Shown: in pieces, positions 5,555 to 16,263 of the stretch
Numbering within the stretch: the first letter of the stretch is position 1
Layout of the letters: every line of letters starts with the position of its first letter
Virus record (IMG/VR): IMGVR_UViG_3300009960_000010
Location: 1 to 37,079 of that record
Strand: one strand, 5' to 3'
DNA length: 37,079 nt
From: a virus
Notes under the pieces: model-generated
The model's input: the letters and a program-made list of their open reading frames with translations, nothing else
The model's database searches: none
Told to the model about the DNA's origin: nothing
Program-made: the position numbers and the translations under genes

Positions 5555-5668
5555 ATGAAAAAATTTAGTAAAGCAGTCGGAGAAATCCTGGCAATGGTAA
5601 TAGCAATATTTGTAACAGCGATGTTTATGGCGTTGATAGTGCGATTTATGGTGTGGGTTTTCTCGTGA
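5555..5668 (+). CDS. Small membrane protein (37 aa), not in the ORF track
   Basis: Hand translation: MKKFSKAVGEILAMVIAIFVTAMFMALIVRFMVWVFS*. Purine-rich AAAGAAAGGAAGAAGT lies before the ATG. Confidence 0.5.
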   Translation: MKKFSKAVGEILAMVIAIFVTAMFMALIVRFMVWVFS

Positions 5669-5730
5669 TTTGTAAGGCAGAGAAAGCAGTATAGTATAAT
5701 CGATGTAGTCTTACTTACAAGGAGGAAGAT

Positions 5731-5910
5731 ATGTTTATAGCAATTGTAATAACGACGATAGCCAGCGGATTGGGGTTAGTCTATCTTTACGCAGGGCTGG
5801 TCGGTGTCCTCACCACCGTCTTTGTTTTGGGACTAATCAGCATAGTCGCAGCAATCACCTATGGCTATTATTTGGAAAAGGACAAAGAAGATGGAGGTCG
5901 TAGACAGTAA
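5731..5910 (+). CDS. Small two-TM membrane protein (59 aa), not in the ORF track
   Basis: Hand translation: MFIAIVITTIASGLGLVYLYAGLVGVLTTVFVLGLISIVAAITYGYYLEKDKEDGGRRQ*. Strong AAGGAGGAAG 4 nt upstream. Confidence 0.6.
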   Translation: MFIAIVITTIASGLGLVYLYAGLVGVLTTVFVLGLISIVAAITYGYYLEKDKEDGGRRQ

Positions 5911-6127
5911 AAATCAGGAAAGAAAGCAAAGAGGCTGGAACTTTAAGAGAGGAGCTAAAAATGCAATCGATACTGAGACACTTCGTGAGAGAGGTAGAAA
6001 AGGGGGCAAAGCCTGTGGCAGAAAAACTGGCTTTCATGACCCGAGCGTACTTAAAAGAGCGGTTGAAAAGTCAATACAGACGCGCCGCGCAAAGATTGAG
6101 AAACGCAAGGATAGAGAGGTATCTTGA
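5891..6127 (+). CDS. Basic protein with a KGG/GsiB-like motif (mutually exclusive with 5961..6158)
   Basis: Frame of track ORF 5861..6127, internal ATG 5891. LRERGRKGGKACGRKTGF resembles the GRKGG stress-repeat motif and the 35266..35511 protein (GRLGGMASTTGGF). The RBS is weak. Confidence 0.4.
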   Translation: MEVVDSKNQERKQRGWNFKRGAKNAIDTETLRERGRKGGKACGRKTGFHDPSVLKRAVEKSIQTRRAKIEKRKDREVS

Positions 6128-6158
6128 AAATTACAAACTAGACTTCATTGAAACCTGA
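5961..6158 (+). CDS. Hypothetical helical protein (alternative frame, mutually exclusive with 5891..6127)
   Basis: 65-aa ORF with a good GAGGAG, 6 nt before the ATG. No recognisable motif. Confidence 0.4.
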   Translation: MQSILRHFVREVEKGAKPVAEKLAFMTRAYLKERLKSQYRRAAQRLRNARIERYLENYKLDFIET

Positions 6159-6176
6159 AACTAAACTAAGAACGTA

Positions 6177-6242: not shown

Positions 6243-6707
6243 ATGCCTAAGAAAACCACTAAAAAACGAGAGAAGTCACCAGAGGAGGAAGCGCTGTATA
6301 TTCTGGATAAGCTCTCAAAAGGTTTGGAGGGAGCGATTAACAGAGAACCCGAACTACGAAAAAAAGCTGATGGGTTGGCAGAGGCTATCACAAAAAGTCA
6401 TGGCAAAGACTCTTTCACCTTTAAGAGTATGAAGACCGCTATACGCGTTTTGATGGTCGCAGATGCTATCGAAAAAGAAGAGATTGAGATTAAAGACGTT
6501 ACAGAAATGAAAGCGGTACTTGCCATGACTGCCGAGACTGTGTTTGGTCTGTCCCGACTTGAGGCTATTCTCTTTGCAAGAGAAGTTGGCGAAGATGTTT
6601 TTGAGGCCTACAAAGAAGAGCATGAAAAAGACGACACAGCTGTCTATAAAACTCTGATAGCGCTGTCTGTGTGCCTAGAAAACTTTAAGGAGAGTACGGA
6701 GGACTAA
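6243..6707 (+). CDS. Hypothetical protein
   Basis: 154-aa ORF, first gene after P2, RBS AAAGGGG. Confidence 0.8.
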   Translation: MPKKTTKKREKSPEEEALYILDKLSKGLEGAINREPELRKKADGLAEAITKSHGKDSFTFKSMKTAIRVLMVADAIEKEEIEIKDVTEMKAVLAMTAETVFGLSRLEAILFAREVGEDVFEAYKEEHEKDDTAVYKTLIALSVCLENFKESTED

Positions 6708-7213
6708 TGAAGTACGAACGCAAACCTGAAGAAAAGGAAGACTTCATCAAAGTAAACGGCGAAAACGTCTACACGATGAATGATATCTTGAAAGGTAATC
6801 CTACCTACAGAGAATGCGTCTTGGCTTTCTCCACTCTCGACAACGAAGAAGACTACGACTTTAAGGCTACCGCTTTGTGGGCGGCAAACTCTGTATCGCT
6901 GCTTATTGAAAGACTTGAAGAGGACAAGGATATTAGCAGTTACGTTCTCTTGTACAACACTCTGCTATTCATGCGGTTTGTCTACCAGCGAAACGCAAAA
7001 GATGAAGAGACTTTTGATAAGCCGAACATTCCTTTGATAGCTAAACTAGACATAGCTCTGTCCAAGGAAGTCGAGAAGATGTTCAAGGAGCACAATGCCA
7101 AAAGCTATAAAGAGCTGCTGGAGGAAGAGTCGTCGCGAGATATCGCTGTAATTTTGACGGACGCAATCGTTAGAGTGGTGTCTTCAAACAAAGATGTTGT
7201 TAAGTTCTGTTAA
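6707..7213 (+). CDS. Hypothetical protein
   Basis: 168-aa ORF with a TAATG junction to the upstream gene. Confidence 0.8.
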   Translation: MKYERKPEEKEDFIKVNGENVYTMNDILKGNPTYRECVLAFSTLDNEEDYDFKATALWAANSVSLLIERLEEDKDISSYVLLYNTLLFMRFVYQRNAKDEETFDKPNIPLIAKLDIALSKEVEKMFKEHNAKSYKELLEEESSRDIAVILTDAIVRVVSSNKDVVKFC

Positions 7214-7295
7214 GAATACTGCAAAAACTGCCGTCTTGCAAATGGTCGCACCTTTCACTTTTTTATTAAATAAAATCAGGAGATGCATAGGAAAT

Positions 7296-8285
7296 ATGGC
7301 AAACTTCTCTGGGTTAAACACCCTCTTAGATGAAATTGACAAGACAGTTTCAGACAAAATCGATAGTAAAATATCAAGCGAAATACCAGAGCTGAAAAAG
7401 CTGGTGAAAAACGCCGAGAAATCAATCAAAGAAAATCTGCCGATAAAAGTTGAGTATGACGGCAAGCTACATGACGTTAAAGGTCTACGCCACAAGTCCT
7501 TAGATAATCTGATTGTGATGGCTTCGCAGAAAATACCCGTGCTGTTAGTCGGAATGGCAGGTTCAGGAAAGACACACGCTGCCACTCAAGTCGCTGAGGC
7601 ACTGGGATTAAACCACTACACTATGTCTGTAGGTGCTCAAACGTCCAAATCAGACATAATCGGCTACATGCACGCCTCTGGCGGTTACGTACCGACACTC
7701 TTCCGAAAAGCGTATGAGGAGGGCGGAGTATTCTTGATGGACGAAATCGACGCTGGCAACGCTAACGTTCTTATCCAGGTCAATGCGGCGCTTTCTAACG
7801 GCTTCTGTGCCTTTCCAGACAAAATGGTGGAACAACACAAAGACTTTGTCTTTATCGCCTCTGCTAACACGTTTGGAAACGGCGCTAACCGTATGTATGT
7901 CGGTCGTAACCAGCTTGACGCTGCCACCCTTGACCGCTTTGCCGTCTTAGTCTGGGACATTGATGAGAAGCTGGAAGACAAAATGGCAGAAGCCTACGGA
8001 GACACTGGCAAGAATTGGCTCAAGGTGGTGCGAGAGCTGAGAAAGACTATTGAGAACGACGGTATCCGCGCTTTGGTAACGCCACGTGCCACTACTAAAG
8101 GTTGCTCTTTACTGAATATCGGGCTTGACTTTGAGACTGTTCTAAACGCTGTGATTGTGGAAAACTTGCCGAGCGACAAGAAGTCTCGCTACCGCGACAT
8201 GGCTAAGAAGAAATGGGACGAAACTTCCGAAACTAAGAAAGCACACGAGACAGCCGAGGCAGAAGAAGCTGAGATAATCTGGTAG
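7296..8285 (+). CDS. AAA+ ATPase, AAA_5 / MoxR-CobS-like
   Basis: Track ORF 7194..8285 trimmed to ATG 7296. Walker A VLLVGMAGSGKTH, Walker B VFLMDEIDAG, then IASANT and ATLDRF, matching the MoxR/CobS/NorQ-type AAA_5 pattern. Confidence 0.85.
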   Translation: MANFSGLNTLLDEIDKTVSDKIDSKISSEIPELKKLVKNAEKSIKENLPIKVEYDGKLHDVKGLRHKSLDNLIVMASQKIPVLLVGMAGSGKTHAATQVAEALGLNHYTMSVGAQTSKSDIIGYMHASGGYVPTLFRKAYEEGGVFLMDEIDAGNANVLIQVNAALSNGFCAFPDKMVEQHKDFVFIASANTFGNGANRMYVGRNQLDAATLDRFAVLVWDIDEKLEDKMAEAYGDTGKNWLKVVRELRKTIENDGIRALVTPRATTKGCSLLNIGLDFETVLNAVIVENLPSDKKSRYRDMAKKKWDETSETKKAHETAEAEEAEIIW

Positions 8286-8294
8286 GAGGTCTAG

Positions 8295-9239
8295 ATGGAT
8301 TTGATAGACTATAACACTTTGGAAGATATCGAGCGAGGAGACGGTTACATTTTTGGCAAGGTTTGCGACAAAACCAAGACAAACCTAAGATATCTTGAGA
8401 ATAGAGAGCTTTGCGGAAGATTTGAGGGAGTTGACATATTCTTAAACGCCTTAACAGAGACGAGTTTGAAGACGGGGAAGTACGGCGACAGTTCTCAGAA
8501 CGTAGGCAAAGACGACTTTTATTTCTTTGAGACTTATGATAAAGCGATGGACACTTTCAAAAATAATCCGTCTAAAGTGGCAGACTTCATGCAAAAAGAT
8601 GACAAGATTTTGGGCGGAGATAGTGCTGGTATGAGCGTAAACTATGACGTTATAGGCGACTTCATCGACATGGGAAGATACGTCGAGGGGATACCAGAGA
8701 CTTTTGGAAGCATGTACAACGGAAATCCACGCTCCAAGCGAGTGAACATTCTAATACCTGCGATGATAAGCTGCAGGGTAGACCACGAGCTAATAAACAA
8801 ACGTTCTGAGCGAGTAAAACGATTGGTGGATTGGCTGGAGGCTAACCAGATGCGGTGTGCTGTTACAGTCATGTACACAAACGACAACTCACATTGCGAA
8901 ATAGCCGTTAAGAAGTTTGATGAGGTCTTCAACATAAACGACATAGCAATCGCTACGCACTCTGATTTCTTCAGACGCTGTCAATTCAAATTTCGAGAGA
9001 ACTCACCTACGCTAGACTGGGGGTATGGAAACTCAAAGCAGTTCTGGAGAGAGACAAGGCTTGAGGATATAATCAAACAAGACTATAACAACGAGTTTAA
9101 TGTCGTGATTGGTAGTCATTTGAGACATAAAAAGCAGATAGACAAAGATGTGGACGACCTTGAGAAGAGATTGAGTAAAAGAATATTTGAAGAAGAAAGT
9201 AACGAAACTATGCTAGGTTGCATGCTGGGGAGCGAATAG
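8295..9239 (+). CDS. Hypothetical protein, probable partner of the AAA+ ATPase (CobT/vWA-like position; no MIDAS motif seen)
   Basis: 314-aa ORF, GGAGG RBS, 9 nt after the ATPase stop. No DxSxS motif recognised by eye. Confidence 0.75.
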   Translation: MDLIDYNTLEDIERGDGYIFGKVCDKTKTNLRYLENRELCGRFEGVDIFLNALTETSLKTGKYGDSSQNVGKDDFYFFETYDKAMDTFKNNPSKVADFMQKDDKILGGDSAGMSVNYDVIGDFIDMGRYVEGIPETFGSMYNGNPRSKRVNILIPAMISCRVDHELINKRSERVKRLVDWLEANQMRCAVTVMYTNDNSHCEIAVKKFDEVFNINDIAIATHSDFFRRCQFKFRENSPTLDWGYGNSKQFWRETRLEDIIKQDYNNEFNVVIGSHLRHKKQIDKDVDDLEKRLSKRIFEEESNETMLGCMLGSE

Positions 9240-9524
9240 ATGAAAAGACTGAGAGCTGGAGACCCAAATCGACAAGAAGTGTGGGAAGCGAGCGGTGCGC
9301 TATTCTCTATCGTAGACTTAGAAATACCGCCACACTTTGATGAAATGAAGAGGCACATTACGGCAGAAGAAGCCAAGAGGATTAAAAAGCTGTTTGCAGA
9401 TGTAGCCAAAGAGAGAAAATCAAACATTGAGCTTGCAAGAATAGACGGAGATGTGGAAATCCTGGGCAGGTTCAAAACCTTTAATCAAGCAAGGAGGTTC
9501 ATCAAGGAGGACTATGAAGATTAA
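9240..9524 (+). CDS. Hypothetical protein
   Basis: 94-aa ORF that starts immediately after the upstream stop. Confidence 0.7.
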   Translation: MKRLRAGDPNRQEVWEASGALFSIVDLEIPPHFDEMKRHITAEEAKRIKKLFADVAKERKSNIELARIDGDVEILGRFKTFNQARRFIKEDYED

Positions 9525-9954
9525 CAAGAAAATGACCAGAGGAGAGGTCGTCAAACGACTAGATTCAATCTTCTCTAAATGGGTCAGGCTGCGGGGTGCG
9601 AAAATCACCCCCGACGGCAGAATATTGAACAAATGCTGTACCTGTGGAGTAGTTCAAGACATTACTAAGATGGATGCTGGACACTACATTTCACGGGGAA
9701 AATATGCGACAAGGTGGAGTGAGGATAATGTCCACCCGCAGTGCAAACGCTGTAATATTTTTCTAAAAGGAAACTACACCTCATACGCCTTGTTTATGAT
9801 AAAGAGATATGGGTACTCAAAACTACAAGAGCTTGACCGACGCTCCAAGTCTACGGAGAAAATATACACATATGAGCTTTTAGAAAAGATTGAATACTAC
9901 AAAGCAAAAGTTAAAGGAATAGAGAGAGCGCTTCATGAAAAAGCCAATGACTAA
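9514..9954 (+). CDS. ninG: NinG/Rap-family recombination endonuclease
   Basis: Track ORF 9451..9954 trimmed to ATG 9514 after AAGGAGG. FSKWVRLRG..CCTCG..DAGHYISRG..RWSEDNVHPQCKRCN..LKGNY fits the lambda NinG pattern. Confidence 0.8.
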   Translation: MKINKKMTRGEVVKRLDSIFSKWVRLRGAKITPDGRILNKCCTCGVVQDITKMDAGHYISRGKYATRWSEDNVHPQCKRCNIFLKGNYTSYALFMIKRYGYSKLQELDRRSKSTEKIYTYELLEKIEYYKAKVKGIERALHEKAND

Positions 9955-10342
9955 TTTAGTTGTGTGTTCAAACTACAAGATATTTCGCAGATACTGGGAG
10001 AGTTTCTACAAGGACAATCCACAGTTCAAAAGAGGAACGCCAGAGATTGGCTTTACATGGTTAGACAGTTCAAACCCAGATGTCCTCAGCCGATTTTCGC
10101 TAAATAGGAAAGCAGACCACATACACAGACGAGGTAGAGATGTTAATATCATATTCTTGAAGTGGTATCAGCCAAATGATGATTTAACACAGAATTACAT
10201 TGGAGACGCTTGGCTGTATGTGTGCTCAGAGTGGAAGACGTTTGGTCGTCCAATCGTCTCAGACAAACTATTAAATACAGATGGCATAGATGAGATGTTC
10301 AGCAGCTTCACTATAACAGCCGCAAATAATATGATATTTTGA
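9935..10342 (+). CDS. Hypothetical protein
   Basis: 135-aa ORF with a 20-nt overlap on ninG. Confidence 0.7.
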   Translation: MKKPMTNLVVCSNYKIFRRYWESFYKDNPQFKRGTPEIGFTWLDSSNPDVLSRFSLNRKADHIHRRGRDVNIIFLKWYQPNDDLTQNYIGDAWLYVCSEWKTFGRPIVSDKLLNTDGIDEMFSSFTITAANNMIF

Positions 10343-10349
10343 AAAATAG

Positions 10350-10378
10350 TTGACAACGTAAGCACGATGATATAAACT
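10350..10378 (+). promoter_or_regulatory. Promoter P3 (TAAGCACG-spacer family); candidate start of the modification + late transcription unit
   Basis: TTGACA (10350-10355), 17-nt spacer ACGTAAGCACGATGATA, TAAACT (10373-10378). The ATG at 10385 sits about where transcription would start. Confidence 0.55.
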
Positions 10379-10384
10379 AAGAAT

Positions 10385-10570
10385 ATGAAAACATCATTTA
10401 TATCAAGCCGACCTTGGGTCAGACAACAACAAATCAAACAAAGAAAAGCCCTACAACGTCGTGAGAGGCTGTGTAACAGTCTTTACATCGCAAAATGGGT
10501 ATCAACATGCTTTGCGCTGGTATTCGCTATGTGGGCGTCTGTGTGGCTTTTGTATTTTGCTATGAGCTAG
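10385..10570 (+). CDS. Small protein with basic N-terminus and C-terminal TM helix, possibly leaderless
   Basis: 61-aa ORF with no RBS. Its ATG is 7 nt after the P3 -10 hexamer. The C-terminus VSTCFALVFAMWASVWLLYFAM is hydrophobic. Confidence 0.4.
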   Translation: MKTSFISSRPWVRQQQIKQRKALQRRERLCNSLYIAKWVSTCFALVFAMWASVWLLYFAMS

Positions 10571-10579
10571 AGGAGGGAC

Positions 10580-10882
10580 ATGACAAAAGAAGAGTTTATC
10601 AAGTTTGTGGAAAGCTGGGACTGGACGTTCGCTAAGACTTACGCCAAGAAATCCCCTCACGAATATATCGTCTGCAAGGCAAACCACCCAAGACGGGCAG
10701 AATACGAAAAGGCAGTCCAGTTTATAAGAGACAATGGCGAGCCCGAGCAATACTTCAGAGCAACATTCACAGTCTATAAGGTGAATGGGCACAAATACTG
10801 GACAGGTAATAAACCGATGTCTGCAGAATGGATACTGAACAGGTCGTTAAAGGGAGAGCAGGATAGAACGTATGGCGACTAA
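10580..10882 (+). CDS. Conserved-looking hypothetical protein (WDWTFAKTYAKKSPHEY motif)
   Basis: 100-aa ORF with a strong GAGGAGGG RBS. Confidence 0.8.
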   Translation: MTKEEFIKFVESWDWTFAKTYAKKSPHEYIVCKANHPRRAEYEKAVQFIRDNGEPEQYFRATFTVYKVNGHKYWTGNKPMSAEWILNRSLKGEQDRTYGD

Positions 10883-11663
10883 GGCTTTTGTAATCCCCAC
10901 AGTCCCCAACAGAATACAGGGGTTAAAGAGATTGTTAGAGTCTATCAAAGGCGAGGTAGATGATACGTGGGACATTCTCATAGCTGCTCAGTGCTACTCA
11001 GAGGCTGAGAGAGACGATATGACGCGTTTTATTGAAGAATTGGGGTTGGCGGACAGGACTGTCTTCAAAATCTCTGAGAAACTCTTAGGTTGCTTCGGAG
11101 GACGTAAACTGTGTTATCAATCAGACTATGATGTCTATTGCAACTTAGACGATGACATGATTGTTTTGCCTACCCAAGACTACAACATGATGGCTAAGAT
11201 GGTTTTGAAGTACGATTTTGTAGGTTGTGTTTCTGGGAATTGGGGTCGCACCTTTGAGCTAGCACAAAAAAAGATACCGAAAATGAAATCAGAGTTCATA
11301 AAGCAGAGCATAGTACACACGGCTGGGGGTATGGTTTTTGGCAAGCGTATCCGAGACATCATCATTGACCTGCCAGACAATATCGGCTATGAAGACTCTG
11401 AGATATCTGCTCAGGCTTACGTCAATGGCTATGAAAACTATCGATACCTAGGTTCTTTGATAGTTCACGCTGTCGTAACTAAGGGAGGGTTGAAAGATTG
11501 GAGACACAAACACGACGCGGTAGTGCCTCACCCTGAAATATTCAATTATAAGAGAGCCAAAAAAGACAAGTATGCAACTAAGGGAAACAACCATCACGAG
11601 CCTATAAGCTCTGACCTTACGCCTTTTGCAAGAGCCATGCACCTGAAAAATAAAAAGAGGTAA
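10872..11663 (+). CDS. GT-A fold (family-2-like) glycosyltransferase
   Basis: FVIPTVPNRIQGLKRLLESI at the N-terminus, GGRK..YCNLDDDMIV (DxD-type) and YEDSEIS, matching the GT2 layout. No TM segment. Confidence 0.7.
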   Translation: MATKAFVIPTVPNRIQGLKRLLESIKGEVDDTWDILIAAQCYSEAERDDMTRFIEELGLADRTVFKISEKLLGCFGGRKLCYQSDYDVYCNLDDDMIVLPTQDYNMMAKMVLKYDFVGCVSGNWGRTFELAQKKIPKMKSEFIKQSIVHTAGGMVFGKRIRDIIIDLPDNIGYEDSEISAQAYVNGYENYRYLGSLIVHAVVTKGGLKDWRHKHDAVVPHPEIFNYKRAKKDKYATKGNNHHEPISSDLTPFARAMHLKNKKR

Positions 11664-11668
11664 CCGTA

Positions 11669-12097
11669 GTGGAATACAGAATCAATCATGGTAAGTTAGA
11701 CAGTCAAGCCATAGAGCTTTTGAAAAGCAGTTCGACTGATGGAATGTTAGAGCCGAGAGAAGAATACGACACGTCAGTTTTAGCAGTCGATGAAAGGACA
11801 ATAGGACATATTGCAATCACTGGAGTTTTAGATGAGTTTACAGAAATAGGAGCTCAAGTAGTTCACCCAGAATATCGAGGGCAACGCATTGGTTACACAC
11901 TGCTAGACAAGATTATGGGAGAAGTCGCCACAAAAAGTGTGATACTGTTCAAACCAAATAGGTCGGTAGCACTTGAGAAGAGAGGCTTTGAAGTTGTTTC
12001 TCCTGAAGAGATACCGATGTGGTTCAGCGATTTATGTGATACTTGCAATGGTCTTTGCACTTGTCATACTATATACAAAAAGGACATAGAAAGATGA
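11669..12097 (+). CDS. GNAT-family N-acetyltransferase with a C-terminal Cys cluster
   Basis: GTG start. Motif A VVHPEYRGQRIGYTLLDKI. C-terminal CDTCNGLCTCH. Confidence 0.7.
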   Translation: MEYRINHGKLDSQAIELLKSSSTDGMLEPREEYDTSVLAVDERTIGHIAITGVLDEFTEIGAQVVHPEYRGQRIGYTLLDKIMGEVATKSVILFKPNRSVALEKRGFEVVSPEEIPMWFSDLCDTCNGLCTCHTIYKKDIER

Positions 12098-13224
12098 AGT
12101 ATTATTCAAAAGAAACAGTGTATGAAGCTTCGAAGAGACGTATTCGAGAGCTTTTTGAGGACTTCCCGAATGTCGTAGTAGCGTTTAGCGGCGGCAAGGA
12201 CAGCGTGGTAGTTTACAACCTTGCCTTGGAGGTAGCAGAGGAGATGGGGCGATTGCCTCTCCCAGTGTTGTTTATAGACCAAGAGGCAGAGTGGCAGTCT
12301 ACAATAGACGTGGTAAGAGAAGTGATGTATGACCCGAGAGTGAAGCCGTACTGGATACAAGCACCCTTTAAAATGTTTAATTCTACAGCTGCTCAAGACA
12401 AAGAAAAAGCCTTCCTCCACGCTTGGGATGAGAACGAAAAAGACAAGTGGATACACGAGAAAGACCCTATTTCTATCAAAGAGAATACATACGGAGTGGA
12501 TAGATTTAGCGAAATGTACGACGCTGTTATAGCTAAAGAGTTCGCAGGTCAACGGGTAGCAATGTTAGGCGGAGTTCGCACTGAAGAATCACCGACGCGC
12601 TTTACAGGGTTGACCAATCTTGTAACTTATAAGTGGATTACTTGGGGTAAGAGGCTCAAAGGTAAAGACCAGTATACATTTTATCCAATTTACGATTGGA
12701 GCTATGTTGATGTTTGGAAAGCCATTCACGACAACGGCTGGACTTATTCTAAGCTTTACGATGCGGTGTACCAGTACGGAACTTCAGTCAGAGACATGCG
12801 AGTGTCGAGCCTTGTTCACGTTACCGCGGTGAGGTCGCTATTCTTTTTACAAGAGTTTGAGGCGGATACTTATAACAGAGTAGTAGCGAGGCTCAACGGT
12901 GTAGACACTGCCGCCAAGATGGGCTTTGAAGATTTTTGGGTGAAAGACTTGCCGTTCATGTTCACGAGCTGGAAAGAGTACAGAGATTATTTACTGGATA
13001 AGCTTATTGTCAACAATGACGAACTAAAGAACAAGCTTGCCAGAAAGTTTGCTGAGCATGAGAGGCTTTATGCTGGTATCGTCCCTGACAAAGAACTGTA
13101 TAAGCTTCATGTGAACTCAATAGTGAATAACGATGACGCTTTAACGAAGCTTAAAAACTGGGAGAATAATCCACACCAAGTATTAGCACGTAGACGAATG
13201 AGAGGAGAGAAAGTTTATGACTAA
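12094..13224 (+). CDS. PAPS-reductase-family PP-loop ATP pyrophosphatase with long C-terminal extension (IbrA/DndC-like)
   Basis: Track ORF 12043..13224 trimmed to ATG 12094 (ATGA overlap with the GNAT stop). VVAFSGGKDSVVV PP-loop, LFIDQEAEW, and a roughly 150-aa C-terminal extension. Confidence 0.85.
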   Translation: MKYYSKETVYEASKRRIRELFEDFPNVVVAFSGGKDSVVVYNLALEVAEEMGRLPLPVLFIDQEAEWQSTIDVVREVMYDPRVKPYWIQAPFKMFNSTAAQDKEKAFLHAWDENEKDKWIHEKDPISIKENTYGVDRFSEMYDAVIAKEFAGQRVAMLGGVRTEESPTRFTGLTNLVTYKWITWGKRLKGKDQYTFYPIYDWSYVDVWKAIHDNGWTYSKLYDAVYQYGTSVRDMRVSSLVHVTAVRSLFFLQEFEADTYNRVVARLNGVDTAAKMGFEDFWVKDLPFMFTSWKEYRDYLLDKLIVNNDELKNKLARKFAEHERLYAGIVPDKELYKLHVNSIVNNDDALTKLKNWENNPHQVLARRRMRGEKVYD

Positions 13225-13900
13225 AATAGAACAAAAAGAGAACACCGAGAAACGCCCAATTTACGAGGTAGACAACTCACACCTACCAGAGTTTTGTAGG
13301 CACAACGCTGTAGCTAATGTGAAGTTCATACCAATTGAGCAAGTGCAAGCTAATGACTACAACCCAAACGCTGTGGCACGCAACGAGATGAGGCTTTTGT
13401 ATCTGTCAATCTTCCACGACACATATACAATGCCAGTTGTCTGTATCAAAGATGAGAGCATAGACAAATACGTCATCGTGGACGGTTTTCACCGCTACAC
13501 GACTATGAGGACTAACAAGGATATCTATGAACTAAATAACGGATATCTTCCGTGTGTAGTTTTGGACAAGGATATCAATGAGAGAATGGCGTCTACAGTC
13601 CGACACAACCGAGCGAGAGGTAAGCACTCAGTATCAGGTATGAGTACGATTGTGTTCGACATGCTTCAAAACGGGAAGAGCGACCAAGAAATCTGCCAGG
13701 AGTTGGGACTTGAGGCAGAAGAGTTAGCACGATTGAAACACATCACAGGCTTTAGTAAACTGTTTGAAAACACCGAGTATGGCAAAGCTTGGGAAACAGA
13801 CAAGCAACTAAAGTACAAAAAAGAGTGGAAAGAAAAGGAGAAAAAACAAAATGGAAACGCCCACAGAAACAAACAAGCTCACACAGATGAAGCTGAGTAG
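13217..13900 (+). CDS. ParB N-terminal-domain protein (IbrB-like)
   Basis: IPIEQVQANDYNPN..., VIVDGFHRY and VRHNRARGKH motifs. 8-nt overlap with the upstream gene; GAGGAG RBS. Confidence 0.8.
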   Translation: MTKIEQKENTEKRPIYEVDNSHLPEFCRHNAVANVKFIPIEQVQANDYNPNAVARNEMRLLYLSIFHDTYTMPVVCIKDESIDKYVIVDGFHRYTTMRTNKDIYELNNGYLPCVVLDKDINERMASTVRHNRARGKHSVSGMSTIVFDMLQNGKSDQEICQELGLEAEELARLKHITGFSKLFENTEYGKAWETDKQLKYKKEWKEKEKKQNGNAHRNKQAHTDEAE

Positions 13901-14474
13901 AATCCAACCGTACTGGCGAAACGCGAAAGACAACAATGATGAAGCCGTCCAGAAAGTTATGGAATCTATCGAGACGTATGGATATCAAGTTCCTATCATC
14001 GTGGACAAAGATAACGTCATAATAGCTGGACATACGCGTTTTAAGGCACTTCAGAGGCTCAATAGCGACAAAGACGGTAAATTATACAAGTCGTTCGACA
14101 CAATCGCTGTAATCGTCTCAGAAATGGACAAGAAGAAAGCTAAAGAGTTCCGCGTGGTGGATAATAAGACCAGCGAGTACTCAAACTGGGACATTGACAA
14201 CCTCACCTTAGAATTGAAAGAGTTTATCGACCCGCTAACAGTACAGTCATTCTTCCCTGAAATTAACCTAGAGGCAGGCTTTAAAGATTTAGACTTTGAA
14301 ATCACCGACGAGCAAGTCGAGAAAAAAGAGAAAGAGCTAGAAGAACAGCTCGAGAAGAAATCAGAGGAACGGCAAGACGCCACTCTTGAAATCATGTGTC
14401 CACACTGCCTTGAGACTTTTGAGATGAGCCGCAAAGATATTCTTACCAACCGTCATCTTGAGAAAGGATTTTAA
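13851..14474 (+). CDS. Second ParB-like nuclease-domain protein with acidic coiled region and C-terminal CxxC
   Basis: LSRIQPYWRNAK..., VPIIVDKDNVIIAGHTRFKA, C-terminal CPHC. AAGGAG lies 10 nt before ATG 13851. 50-nt overlap with the upstream gene. Confidence 0.75.
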   Translation: METPTETNKLTQMKLSRIQPYWRNAKDNNDEAVQKVMESIETYGYQVPIIVDKDNVIIAGHTRFKALQRLNSDKDGKLYKSFDTIAVIVSEMDKKKAKEFRVVDNKTSEYSNWDIDNLTLELKEFIDPLTVQSFFPEINLEAGFKDLDFEITDEQVEKKEKELEEQLEKKSEERQDATLEIMCPHCLETFEMSRKDILTNRHLEKGF

Positions 14475-14476
14475 CT

Positions 14477-14863
14477 ATGACAGGAAGACCAAGCACGATG
14501 ACAGACGCAGTTCTAAAGAAGCTGAAACAAGCTTTTAGTATAGGTTGTTCGGACAGGGAAGCCTGTGCATATGTGGGTATTTCTCGTTCGACGCTCTATA
14601 ATTACCAGAATGAAAACCCAGAGTTCTTGGAAGAGAAAGCACTGCTGAAAGAGAAACCCGTCTTACTGGCGCGCCAAGTCGTGGTGAAAGCACTGGAGAA
14701 AGAGGACGTGAAGACAGCTCAGTGGTTGCTAGAGAGGAAAAAGCGTAAAGAGTTTGCCACACGTACAGAATCCGAAATCAGGCAAGTGGAAGCCTTTGAC
14801 AATCTCACAGACGACGAACTGAAGAACATTGCTGACGGTGCAAGTGCTGCTGAAGAAGAGTAG
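14477..14863 (+). CDS. terS: Terminase small subunit (HTH)
   Basis: 128 aa, directly upstream of terL. N-terminal GRPS...LKQAFSIGCSDREACAYVGISRSTLYNY is an HTH typical of small terminases. Confidence 0.7.
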   Translation: MTGRPSTMTDAVLKKLKQAFSIGCSDREACAYVGISRSTLYNYQNENPEFLEEKALLKEKPVLLARQVVVKALEKEDVKTAQWLLERKKRKEFATRTESEIRQVEAFDNLTDDELKNIADGASAAEEE

Positions 14864-14871
14864 GGGGTCTT

Positions 14872-16263
14872 ATGCCTCCCAAGATGACCTCAAGACAGGC
14901 AAAAGCCAAGATAGAACTTGTCCGCCGACGCTGTAAGAAAAAGGGTGGGTTTAAGTTCTTTATTAACCATGTCTTCAAAGCGAGTTTTGAGCATTTCATC
15001 ATAGGGGACTACATTAGTTTTGTGGCAGACAGACTGGAAGAGAATGACTGGACAATGGACGTTACTGCCCGAGACCACTTCAAATCCACTCGACTGTACG
15101 CAGAAATCATGTACGACATATTCACAGCAGAGAAAGATATCGAGGGACACTACTTCTCATATCAGGCAGGAATGAGTTCGTACCACCTAGCCAAAGTCAA
15201 GAGAATGATAGAAATCAATCCGTTCTTTATCTTTTGTACTAACCTAAATACACAATCAGCCTCTACCGTGGACTTCCACAATGGAAAAGCTAGAGTATGG
15301 TTTGTACCAGAGGGACTACTATCGTTTAAGCGTGGTATTCACGCCGAAAGAATATACATTGACGACCCCCTAAAAGACCCAGAGAACAAGCTAGCTCCTA
15401 CAGTCATTCACAAGATAAACAACGTGATAAAGCTGGAAATCTACGCCATGGTGAAGAAGAACGGGAAATGTAGGGTAGTGGGAACACCTCAAACGTATTC
15501 AGACTTCTTCTTTGATGAGGGACTGAGAGAGAGATTTGACGTGGTTATCCTCGACGCGATGAAAGACGAAGCGAACAGAATCGCCCTATTCCCCGAGTGG
15601 AAGTCCTTTGATGAATTAGAAGCTATACGAAAAACCATCGGTGAGAAGTCATTTAACCAGGAATATCGAGCCAAGCCATCATACTCTGAGGACAGCTATA
15701 TAAGCCGCAAAGAACTCATGACGTGTATTATCCCATCTTTAATCAATCAAGCGTCTTACAGCGGCTCTCACGACGTTGTAGCGGGATATGACATAGGAAA
15801 GCACACACACCCAGCACACTTTTCTATATTCGAGATGTGGGAAGACAAAGACGGAACGCACTACAAACAATTATTAAGCAAATGGCTAGACGGTTGGGAC
15901 TATAAGAAACAGCTGGAGTATCTCACCCACGCCATCGAGCTATACAAGATAGACGTACTACGCTATGATGACACCAGAGGAGAGTTTGAGGGCTTCAAAG
16001 AGCAAGGCTTAATTCCAAGAGAAATGAAACCCGTACACTTTAGTATGAAGTCCAAGAACGCAATGGCAGTATCAATGCAGACAGCAGTTTTAAGTGGTAA
16101 CCTTGAACTTATTAACGATACAAGACAGACCGACCAAATCCTAGCCGTAACCTCTGACCTACAAGCCTTTGAATCAGTAGAGGGACACGGAGACAGTTTC
16201 TGGAGTAATGCACTAGCACTATGGCAGGAGAAACAAAAGGAATACCAGATAAGAGTTTTGTGA
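14872..16263 (+). CDS. terL: Terminase large subunit
   Basis: 463 aa. Deviant Walker A ARDHFKST, Walker B-like RIYIDDP, VVGTPQT. Nuclease-half acidic residues in AGYDIGK, RYDDTRGE and GHGDSFWS. Confidence 0.9.
   Translation: MPPKMTSRQAKAKIELVRRRCKKKGGFKFFINHVFKASFEHFIIGDYISFVADRLEENDWTMDVTARDHFKSTRLYAEIMYDIFTAEKDIEGHYFSYQAGMSSYHLAKVKRMIEINPFFIFCTNLNTQSASTVDFHNGKARVWFVPEGLLSFKRGIHAERIYIDDPLKDPENKLAPTVIHKINNVIKLEIYAMVKKNGKCRVVGTPQTYSDFFFDEGLRERFDVVILDAMKDEANRIALFPEWKSFDELEAIRKTIGEKSFNQEYRAKPSYSEDSYISRKELMTCIIPSLINQASYSGSHDVVAGYDIGKHTHPAHFSIFEMWEDKDGTHYKQLLSKWLDGWDYKKQLEYLTHAIELYKIDVLRYDDTRGEFEGFKEQGLIPREMKPVHFSMKSKNAMAVSMQTAVLSGNLELINDTRQTDQILAVTSDLQAFESVEGHGDSFWSNALALWQEKQKEYQIRVL

Follow-up and report, generated by a model that had tools for sequence, protein, structure and literature searches.

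An IbrA/IbrB pair within a coupled phage gene cassette containing a glycosyltransferase and a variable tailoring slot

The IbrA/IbrB pair is known from the IbrAB island of E. coli ECOR-9, from YbdN/YbdM, and from Flavobacterium and Streptococcus phages, where a protein with PAPS_reduct and DUF3440 domains adjoins a ParB-like protein. The same pair is present in a 37,079-nucleotide (nt) stretch of viral DNA (IMG/VR record IMGVR_UViG_3300009960_000010, positions 1 to 37,079) that we refer to as the window. Unlike the pair by itself, the window pair is contained in a larger coupled cassette located before terS that also encodes a 100-residue protein that we call small100, a GT-A type glycosyltransferase (GT), a GNAT acetyltransferase, and a second ParB-type protein (ParB2). 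Their recurrence in other loci shows that these genes form a co-inherited enzymatic module with a diversifying tailoring slot.

Six plus-strand open reading frames (ORFs) at 10580-14474, described in an earlier reading of the sequence (the original prediction), were confirmed to the nucleotide. They are predicted to encode:

10580..10882, + strand, small100 (100 amino acids, aa)
10872..11663, + strand, GT-A glycosyltransferase (263 aa)
11669..12097, + strand, GNAT acetyltransferase (142 aa)
12094..13224, + strand, IbrA (376 aa from the ATG at 12094)
13217..13900, + strand, IbrB (227 aa)
13851..14474, + strand, ParB2 (207 aa)

The translational coupling noted originally was also found, with an ATGA at 12094 and overlaps of 8 nt at 13217 and 50 nt at 13851, and there is an additional 11-nt overlap at 10872. 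The IbrB gene is adjacent to and co-directional with that of IbrA, and the window proteins matched those annotated as IbrA and IbrB in Flavobacterium phage FPSV-F7 (phmmer, 3e-56 and 1e-50). The gene order is IbrA-IbrB in the window, whereas it is IbrB-IbrA in Bacteroidota phages. In Flavobacterium and S. thermophilus phages a hypothetical protein of ~400-412 aa is encoded ahead of IbrAB (loci L001:3197-4420, L002:3243-4454, and L204:3767-5005) and may be a lineage-specific partner of the pair, which in these phages is not adjacent to the terminase. ORFs on the minus strand, such as 12106-12552 and 14051-14449, were regarded as shadows of the plus-strand genes, which are well supported.

Microbacterium phage Hendrix has an equivalent cassette by its terminase, across the ends of the linear map (gp154-158 and gp1-3). 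This cassette is comprised of two GT-like genes, a fusion of small100 to a methyltransferase, a GNAT, IbrA (annotated as 'adenylyltransferase'), IbrB, two ParB2 proteins, a helix-turn-helix (HTH)/terS-like gene, and the terminase. It differs from the window cassette in the fusion of small100, in an IbrA that is only ~39% identical, in its actinobacterial host, and in its GTs, which belong to another, GT25-like family (C0) that showed no relation by hhalign to our alignment of the window GT family (A1). Both IbrA and small100 were matched in Hendrix and in the Microbacterium phages Leaf, Dewdrop, and Rasputia. The Hendrix cassette has been annotated gene by gene, and the genome paper does not discuss it as a unit. 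A full-text literature search found no papers that assign a biochemical function to IbrAB or describe the module. The original statement that this is not a described system is thus correct for the literature searched, but an equivalent set of GT, methyltransferase, GNAT, IbrA, IbrB, and two ParB genes has been deposited in Hendrix. The IbrAB pair in phages was already known; the search found no paper on the wider module with its member small100, or on the exclusive GT family and the variable slot.

The cassette is also similar to DNA hypermodification clusters, in which a C5-methyltransferase (C5-MT)/5mYOX (TET/JBP) is combined with a GT-A or GT-B enzyme and sometimes also with a ParB activator (Pyle et al. 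2023/2024, O'Toole et al. 2026). Common to both are a GT-A with an R...DDD...ED motif and TarP-like fold, a protein with a ParB nucleotide-binding domain and no obvious DNA-binding domain, proximity to the terminase, and GNAT, O-methyltransferase (O-MT), and N6/N4 methyltransferase neighbours. An R...DDD...ED(Y/F) motif and TarP-like fold have been reported for experimentally validated phage DNA GT-A enzymes. The neighbourhoods of 5mYOX genes are enriched in GTs, ParBs, terminases, GNATs, O-MTs, and N6/N4 methyltransferases (PMC13229309). In contrast to these clusters, the core position in the cassette is held by the IbrA/IbrB pair and small100.

Predicted proteins of the cassette

IbrA contains a PAPS_reduct domain (PF01507, 67.6 bits with a cut-off of 22.5, 1.8e-18) followed by DUF3440 (PF11922, 29.4 bits with a cut-off of 25, 8e-7) and matches phrog_2302 at 7e-85, while IbrB matches phrog_2159 at 1e-69. 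These matches agree with the IbrA/IbrB architecture recognized in the original prediction. Alignment of 16 members of the IbrA family (A4) showed that SGGKDS, DQExE, GxRxxE, and PxxDW are invariant and that there is no conserved cysteine; the window protein has no cysteines at all. Comparison of the IbrA profile with solved structures in the PDB gave matches to FAD synthase (FMN adenylyltransferase) at 4e-8, CysD at 2e-7, and PAPS reductase at 3e-3. Matches to DndC, BrxP, and CysH models were weak and partial, with scores of 24.1 bits against a cut-off of 290.4 for DndC (TIGR03183), and of 20.9 against 254 bits (TIGR02057) and 18.7 against 165 bits (TIGR00434) for CysH. Because there is no cysteine and because FMN adenylyltransferase and CysD are the nearest solved relatives, IbrA is predicted to be a PP-loop ATP pyrophosphatase/adenylyltransferase rather than a reductase or a sulfur-inserting enzyme such as DndC. 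Of the original 'PAPS-reductase/DndC-type' description, the PP-loop and the domain assignment remain valid, but reductase or DndC chemistry does not, given zero cysteines and 24 bits against 290. PAPS reductase (CysH) was rejected as the identity of IbrA; the catalytic C-terminal cysteine (ECGLH-type) is missing and scores are far under the CysH cut-offs. FMN adenylyltransferase (the eukaryotic FAD synthase) and the ATP sulfurylase CysD share the PP-loop and PxxDW region with IbrA and transfer AMP to a phosphate or sulfate oxygen. However, only short stretches align, and IbrA adds the DUF3440 extension and an obligatory ParB-like partner.

Sequence comparison predicts that IbrB is a ParB/Srx-fold, NTP-binding protein of the IbrB type. 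The family alignment (A5) is extremely conserved, with NDYNPN, DGFHRY, and ASTxRHNRARGxH motifs followed by an HTH-like C-terminal region; the PDB matches are weak and include ParB, Noc, and the serine kinases SerK and SbnI. In one locus (L045:6523-8046) IbrB is split by an intein with a LAGLIDADG homing-endonuclease domain at the conserved HDGY/TQP site (the slash marks the intein position), which suggests that this site is functionally critical. An insertion of ~190 aa between VVCIE and KYVIVDGFHRY is present in the IbrB of three loci that are near-identical to the window (IbrA 98% identical; L009:10345-11586, L052:8124-9365, and L079:971-2218); it has no obvious intein ends and is missing from the window IbrB.

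ParB2 matches Pfam ParB_N (6e-5), phrog_620 (7e-39), phrog_498, which is a DNA methyltransferase family (1e-29), and PADLOC MTase_II over residues 8-126 (3e-18). Its domain is of the type found at the N-terminus of phage ParB-DNA-methyltransferase fusions, and ParB2 is predicted to be a protein with a ParB N-terminal (nucleotide-binding) domain. It is acidic (net charge ~ -12) and has a C-terminal CPxC motif. A canonical ParABS ParB was rejected for both ParB-type proteins: ParB2 scored 26.6 bits with TIGR00180 (cut-off 58.45) and IbrB gave no match, there is no ParA in the window, and no parS-like palindromes lie near the cassette, where the repeats are short and probably due to chance.

The GT of the window scores below the cut-off for Pfam GT2 (13.6 against 23.3 bits), and PF00535 is matched by 18 of 28 members of its family. 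The family alignment (A1), built from word-indexed homologs (n=42), contains an invariant R14, D93-D94-D95, and D175, and a GGG motif; the window protein has R14, D93-95, and E174-D175, which corresponds to the R...DDD...ED pattern. The A1 profile matches the GT-A domains of solved PDB structures. When the AlphaFold2 (AF2) model of the GT (pLDDT 95) was searched with Foldseek, only GT-A enzymes were recovered (E 1e-10 to 1e-8, probability 1.00, TMq 0.55-0.67), including K4CP, PcManGT, RmlT, TarS/TarP, ppGalNAcT, and AvpGT. None of the six cassette proteins has a transmembrane-like segment (maximum Kyte-Doolittle 19-residue mean below 1.3), in agreement with the original statement on the GT. 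Thus, the sequence and the model predict a soluble GT-A fold glycosyltransferase that is a divergent member of GT2. The family is small and sharply bounded: a search of 1.84 billion representatives gave 122 clusters at E <= 1e-30, and almost all are single-domain proteins of ~260 aa. No match was obtained by tblastn against cultured phages or when the GT profile was used for a pattern scan of 185,579 species genomes; three loci from metagenome-assembled genomes (MAGs) that contain this GT family (L139, L146, and L181) surfaced later in a scan seeded with IbrA. A TarP/TarS-type or Gtr serotype-conversion GT was ruled out, since the protein has no transmembrane segment, is a single 263-aa domain, and was always found with IbrAB. 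The fold similarity is real, and the chemistry may be similar to that of TarP/TarS.

No match to small100 was found in Pfam, PHROG, NCBIfam, or PADLOC, or among PDB sequences, even though it has more than 434 homologs, none of which is named or has a Pfam domain. Its AF2 model has a confident alpha/beta fold (pLDDT 92); a structural search with this model gave no PDB match (best E 0.28), and BFVD gave one unnamed viral homolog. The residues A18, P26, H27, Y29, Y73, W74, and N87 are invariant. In several relatives, including Hendrix gp156, small100 is fused to a class-I S-adenosylmethionine (SAM) methyltransferase. Look-ups seeded with small100 also reach IbrA/IbrB/ParB modules ahead of the terminase, with the exception of one bacterial locus. 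From sequence and model, small100 is predicted to represent a new family. The original prediction had left this ORF outside a set of five genes, whereas its recurrence shows it to be part of the core of the module. The exceptional locus (L048:8001-8375, GCA_964421295.1) contains a lone small100 homolog without IbrAB; its neighbours are a DEAD/YjiV_N/MZB helicase, DUF2779, a PLD-like protein, and DUF6361, which resembles a defence island.

The motifs quoted in the original prediction are all present (FVIPTVPNR, NLDDDMIV, YEDSE, VHPEYRGQRIGYTLL, CxxCxxxCxC, SGGKDS, VDGFHRY, RHNRARGKH, AGHTRF, and CPHC), and its assignments of a GT-A, a GNAT, a PP-loop protein, and two ParB-type proteins agree with Pfam and PHROG and, in the case of the GT, with AF2 and Foldseek.

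Recurrence of the module and its variable slot

Counts of loci given here come from samples of at most 80 loci. The sample seeded with the GT contained look-ups plus 40 IMG/VR loci and was reduced to 23 non-redundant loci. IbrA and IbrB were present in all 23 of these, ParB2 in 22, and small100 in 17, and the pair was found beside the GT in every GT locus with enough flank. These loci have at least six gene orders and phage backbones with differing terminase and portal types. An IbrA-seeded scan of IMG/VR gave more than 558 relatives, from which 34 non-redundant loci with adequate flanks were counted. IbrB and ParB2 each occurred in 33 of the 34 and small100 in 22, while among the accessory genes the window GT family occurred in 2, C0 in 17, the C1 DNA methyltransferase in 14, GNATs in 10, and class-I methyltransferases in 9. 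In loci from genomes and MAGs, which cover very diverse phyla, IbrB accompanied IbrA in 36/36; the third gene found most often there codes for a beta-class N6A/N4C DNA methyltransferase (15/36), and IbrB-MTase-IbrA is a frequent order. Across the three samples, IbrB was next to IbrA in 33/34, 23/23, and 36/36 loci.

This arrangement is not due to chance, since dozens of divergent phage contigs contain these genes together, in permuted order. The core of the module consists of IbrA, IbrB, ParB2, and small100, and the GT family is an accessory. Occurrence of the ParB/PAPS-reductase pair without the GT, which the original prediction had listed among the points that would speak against it, was seen in 32 of the 34 IbrA-seeded loci, but the GT was always accompanied by IbrAB.

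Gene fusions of three kinds, IbrA-IbrB, ParB2-methyltransferase, and small100-methyltransferase, support a functional linkage between these predicted proteins. IbrA and IbrB form a single 535-aa ORF in two loci (L116:2655-4262 and L118:4299-5906) that contains full IbrA and the C-terminal two-thirds of IbrB (DGFHRY...RHNRARG...HTH); this ORF could be either a Rosetta-stone fusion or a frameshift artefact. ParB2 is fused to an N6/N4 methyltransferase in L127.

The GNAT gene behaves differently from the core. The 11669-12097 ORF is predicted to encode a GNAT acetyltransferase from matches to Acetyltransf_7 (29.7, cut-off 27), Acetyltransf_1 (29.4, cut-off 20.7), and Acetyltransf_10 (26.7, cut-off 23.6), and it gave no PDB sequence match that would bear on its acceptor. 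Its C-terminal CxxCxxxCxC (residues ~120-133) lies outside the GNAT fold and might bind a metal or mediate an interaction. GNATs of the window type are limited to the nearest relatives (L003, L008, L009, and L052). In relatives with a 90%-identical GT, the GNAT is replaced by an unassigned 192-aa ORF that clusters with a 192-aa class-I methyltransferase of L004, a locus where the GT is 60% identical, and in another relative (GT 47% identical) its position is filled by PvlArgDC. The occupants of this position in relatives are SAM methyltransferases, C0, DNA N6/N4 methyltransferases, and polyamine decarboxylases and, more rarely, TylF-like and FkbM-like methyltransferases, a pyruvoyl arginine decarboxylase, an AdoMet decarboxylase, a saccharopine-dehydrogenase-like enzyme, a radical SAM enzyme, and a family with an HxD...H motif. 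The GNAT is therefore the occupant of a variable slot and not a conserved member. Such variability (GNAT, methyltransferases, PvlArgDC, AdoMet_dc, and radical SAM) mirrors that of known hypermodification clusters. Thus, co-occurrence, including that of the GT with IbrA and IbrB in 23/23 loci, lends strong support to the proposal that these genes form one multi-step modification module, but the GNAT is not among the conserved members.

Several of the slot families could be described further. C1 is a beta-class N6A/N4C DNA methyltransferase with MboIIA, RsrI, DpnA, and CcrM as PDB relatives. The evidence that C0 is a second GT-like family is weak (GT25 at 6e-4, PDB matches with E ~0.6). The C4 family of ~177 aa (L076:4312-4821, L088:6471-7001, L089:6447-6983, and L113:6471-7001) has an invariant PLHxDP...SPHQ, and its HxD...H pattern recalls Fe(II)/2-oxoglutarate oxygenases; it had no Pfam or PDB match. 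Polyamine-pathway enzymes fill the slot in a minority of loci, with AdoMet_dc in L012, L022, and L129, PvlArgDC in L006, L025, L027, and L044, and a saccharopine-dehydrogenase-like (carboxyspermidine-dehydrogenase-like) protein in L081 and L144. This hints that polyamine enzymes may supply amine donors for a modification.

Leader and flanking genes

The following features flank the cassette, which, as described originally, is located between a promoter-like site and the packaging genes terS and terL directly downstream:

9451-9954, NinG, upstream of the cassette
10350..10378, + strand, sigma-70-like promoter candidate (TTGACA-17-TAAACT; consensus scan, 10/12 matches)
10526..10547, + strand, terminator-like hairpin and T-run in the leader (consensus-level match)
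14477-14863, + strand, terS (phrog_4102, 1e-21)
14872-16263, + strand, terL (phrog_5909, phrog_38)

The promoter candidate, which like the hairpin is a consensus-level match only, lies in a 237-nt gap after the NinG/orf135 genes and is likely the start of a late operon. The hairpin is ~30 nt ahead of the strong ribosome-binding site (GAGGAGGG) of the first cassette gene, and the leader could be an antitermination-controlled late leader. It was not unusually structured when folded (z = -0.61), and no Rfam match was found in 9800-15000. A 61-aa ORF in the leader (10385-10570) has a hydrophobic C-terminus and overlaps the hairpin.

A AAGCACTGCTGAAAGAGA-like 18-mer occurs three times inside terS (14637-14654, 14688-14705, and 14842-14859), with two copies 51 nt apart; these could relate to pac or be due to chance. 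Upstream of the cassette is a pair of genes for an AAA_5/AAA ATPase (7194-8285) and DUF7192 (8295-9239). The same pair is found with differing intervening genes in the module contigs L004, L006, L014, L046, and L133 and may be linked to the module or merely mark a lineage. NinG is intact in the window and is in two pieces ~490 nt apart (5570-6166 and 6656-6967) in the relatives L008/L009, suggesting an insertion in those genomes. A megablast search of the region against 50,697 phage records gave no match, and the window, which is JGI metagenome contig 3300028513 Ga0307844_1070, has no close relative among cultured phages. The lysis genes found by a Pfam sweep of the window (CW_7, LysM, and XhlA) suggest that the host is Gram-positive.

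Possible functions of the cassette

We propose, with a probability of about 0.5, that the cassette is expressed late and modifies phage DNA in an ATP-dependent manner, including tailoring with sugar and acetyl groups. The modification would be covalent and would occur after replication and before packaging, the cassette being the first genes of the late operon. ParB-domain proteins would recruit the enzymes to double-stranded DNA or turn on their activity at that site, and IbrA would use ATP to adenylylate a substrate oxygen with release of pyrophosphate. This oxygen could belong to a backbone phosphate or to the carbonyl of a base, or else to the phosphate of a small molecule, which would then become an ADP-linked donor; adenylylation of an oxygen by IbrA would be analogous to the chemistry of CysD, FMN adenylyltransferase, and DndC. 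The GT-A enzyme would then transfer a sugar and the GNAT would acetylate an amino group of the adduct. In relatives, methylation would replace the tailoring step, or arginine and AdoMet decarboxylases would supply amine donors. The likely benefit would be evasion of host restriction or of other DNA-sensing defences. DNA is favoured as the substrate because two of the core proteins have ParB domains, because ParB2 has a homolog in the domain that targets DNA methyltransferase fusions, because DNA amino-methyltransferases are the most frequent extra partner, and because the GT has the R...DDD...ED motif and TarP-like fold of validated phage DNA GT-A enzymes. Like the original prediction, we infer both that the target is DNA and that the role is anti-restriction.

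Several observations weigh against this proposal. Accessory genes are known to cluster upstream of terS, so that some of the co-location could be positional. By Foldseek, the GT matches wall-teichoic-acid and protein glycosyltransferases equally well, and the strong acidity of ParB2 argues against direct binding of DNA by this protein. To our knowledge, every characterised DNA GT uses a hydroxyl handle made by 5mYOX, ThyS-type, or C5-MT enzymes. A Pfam sweep of the window's other 42 ORFs of at least 90 aa found no 5mYOX, TET/JBP, ThyS-type hydroxymethylase, or C5-MT; the same sweep found no methyltransferase, as originally noted. If the GT acts on DNA, it would therefore fall to IbrA/IbrB to make or activate the site of attachment. 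The IbrAB pair of S. thermophilus phage CHPC1148 is not adjacent to the terminase. The sole experimental report on IbrAB is cited for the activation of prophage (eib) gene expression in E. coli ECOR-9.

A more specific and clearly more tentative version is that IbrA and IbrB are the initiating pair of an unrecognised, 5mYOX-independent, post-replicative DNA hypermodification, in which IbrA would adenylylate DNA, lineage-specific enzymes would decorate it, and small100 would be an adaptor or reader. The target of IbrA could be a backbone phosphate, as has been proposed for DndC, or a base carbonyl, as for TilS and GMP synthetase. Adenylylation would permit substitution by an amine or hydroxyl compound, and the resulting adduct would be decorated by the GT-A, GNAT, methyltransferase, and polyamine-supplying enzymes.

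Explanations that do not involve DNA modification were judged to be less probable. It is rather unlikely, but the best of these, that the cassette is a glycan pathway with a non-DNA acceptor. IbrB would be a kinase (Srx/SerK-like) that, together with an FMN adenylyltransferase/CysD-like IbrA, makes an ADP-activated donor; the GT-A would act on a virion protein, as in mycobacteriophage capsid glycosylation, or on wall teichoic acid, and the GNAT or O-MT would tailor the sugar. The solved proteins closest to IbrA transfer AMP to phosphate or sulfate oxygens, IbrB matches free serine kinases weakly, and TarS, TarP, RmlT, and ppGalNAcT are among the top structural matches of the GT. TylF-like and FkbM-like methyltransferases in the slot are typical of sugar tailoring, the cassette is in the late operon by the structural genes, and the CW_7, LysM, and XhlA lysis genes suggest a Gram-positive host. 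This pathway leaves unexplained the two core ParB-domain proteins and the DNA N6/N4 methyltransferase that is the commonest partner, and half of the IbrA-seeded modules have no recognisable GT. Moreover, arginine and AdoMet decarboxylases are not sugar-tailoring enzymes, and the 263-aa GT does not have the extra C-terminal domains of TarS/TarP. Regulation by the cassette is improbable in our view. Here, IbrA and IbrB would co-activate phage or prophage expression, as first reported for E. coli ECOR-9, or act as KorB-like NTP-dependent DNA clamps that turn on late transcription or packaging, and the GT and GNAT would be unrelated morons in a common hot spot. Consistent with regulation, the C-terminal region of IbrB is HTH-like, CTP-dependent transcription regulators are known among ParB-fold proteins (PMC12704722), and the cassette opens the late operon behind a promoter and terminator-like leader. 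The invariant PP-loop catalytic site, the strict dependence of the GT on IbrAB (23/23 loci), the interchangeable enzymatic slot, and the IbrB-MTase-IbrA operons would then have no explanation. An effect on expression could also be secondary to DNA modification.

Even less probable is a role of the PP-loop and ParB/Srx NTPases in consuming, capping, or modifying free nucleotides or the second messengers of defence systems instead of DNA. ParB/Srx proteins have been proposed to be nucleotide-degrading effectors of conflict systems (PMC10853773), IbrA is an ATP pyrophosphatase-type enzyme, and a small100 homolog is encoded in the defence-island-like bacterial locus L048. Such a role does not account for the GT, GNAT, and DNA methyltransferase partners or for late rather than early expression, and PADLOC gave no anti-defence or defence matches beyond weak similarity to DndC/BrxP. 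Finally, a sulfur-metabolism auxiliary gene or Dnd-like phosphorothioation is suggested by the PAPS_reduct domain of IbrA, by its weak partial matches to DndC, BrxP, and CysH models, and by a ParB-like partner that recalls DndB; in the Dnd system, ParB-like DndB and PAPS-reductase-like DndC pair the same two superfamilies in a DNA-modification context. In contrast to that system, IbrA scores far under the model cut-offs (24 bits against 290 for DndC; 19-21 bits against 165-254 for CysH), and no DndA, DndD, DndE, or cysteine desulfurase was found in the Pfam sweep of the window. The absence of cysteines from IbrA, and of any conserved cysteine from its family, rules out thiol-dependent PAPS reduction and the Cys/Fe-S chemistry of DndC, so that this explanation is effectively excluded.

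For the IbrAB family, these results mean that the pair forms the core of a widespread and compact phage module with a diversifying slot, that the 'reductase' of the pair cannot be a reductase, and that the partners of the module (ParB domains, DNA amino-methyltransferases, and GT-A enzymes) point to DNA. The module can be approached in cultured phages, with the full cassette in Hendrix and the IbrAB pair in Flavobacterium and S. thermophilus phages. Possible payoffs include new DNA modification chemistry, anti-restriction biology, and the correction of sulfur-metabolism 'auxiliary metabolic gene' calls in viromics. If modification is indeed initiated by IbrAB, this would provide a biochemical function for IbrAB/YbdNM, and DNA modification of a new class would occur in many bacterial phyla and in the phages that infect them.

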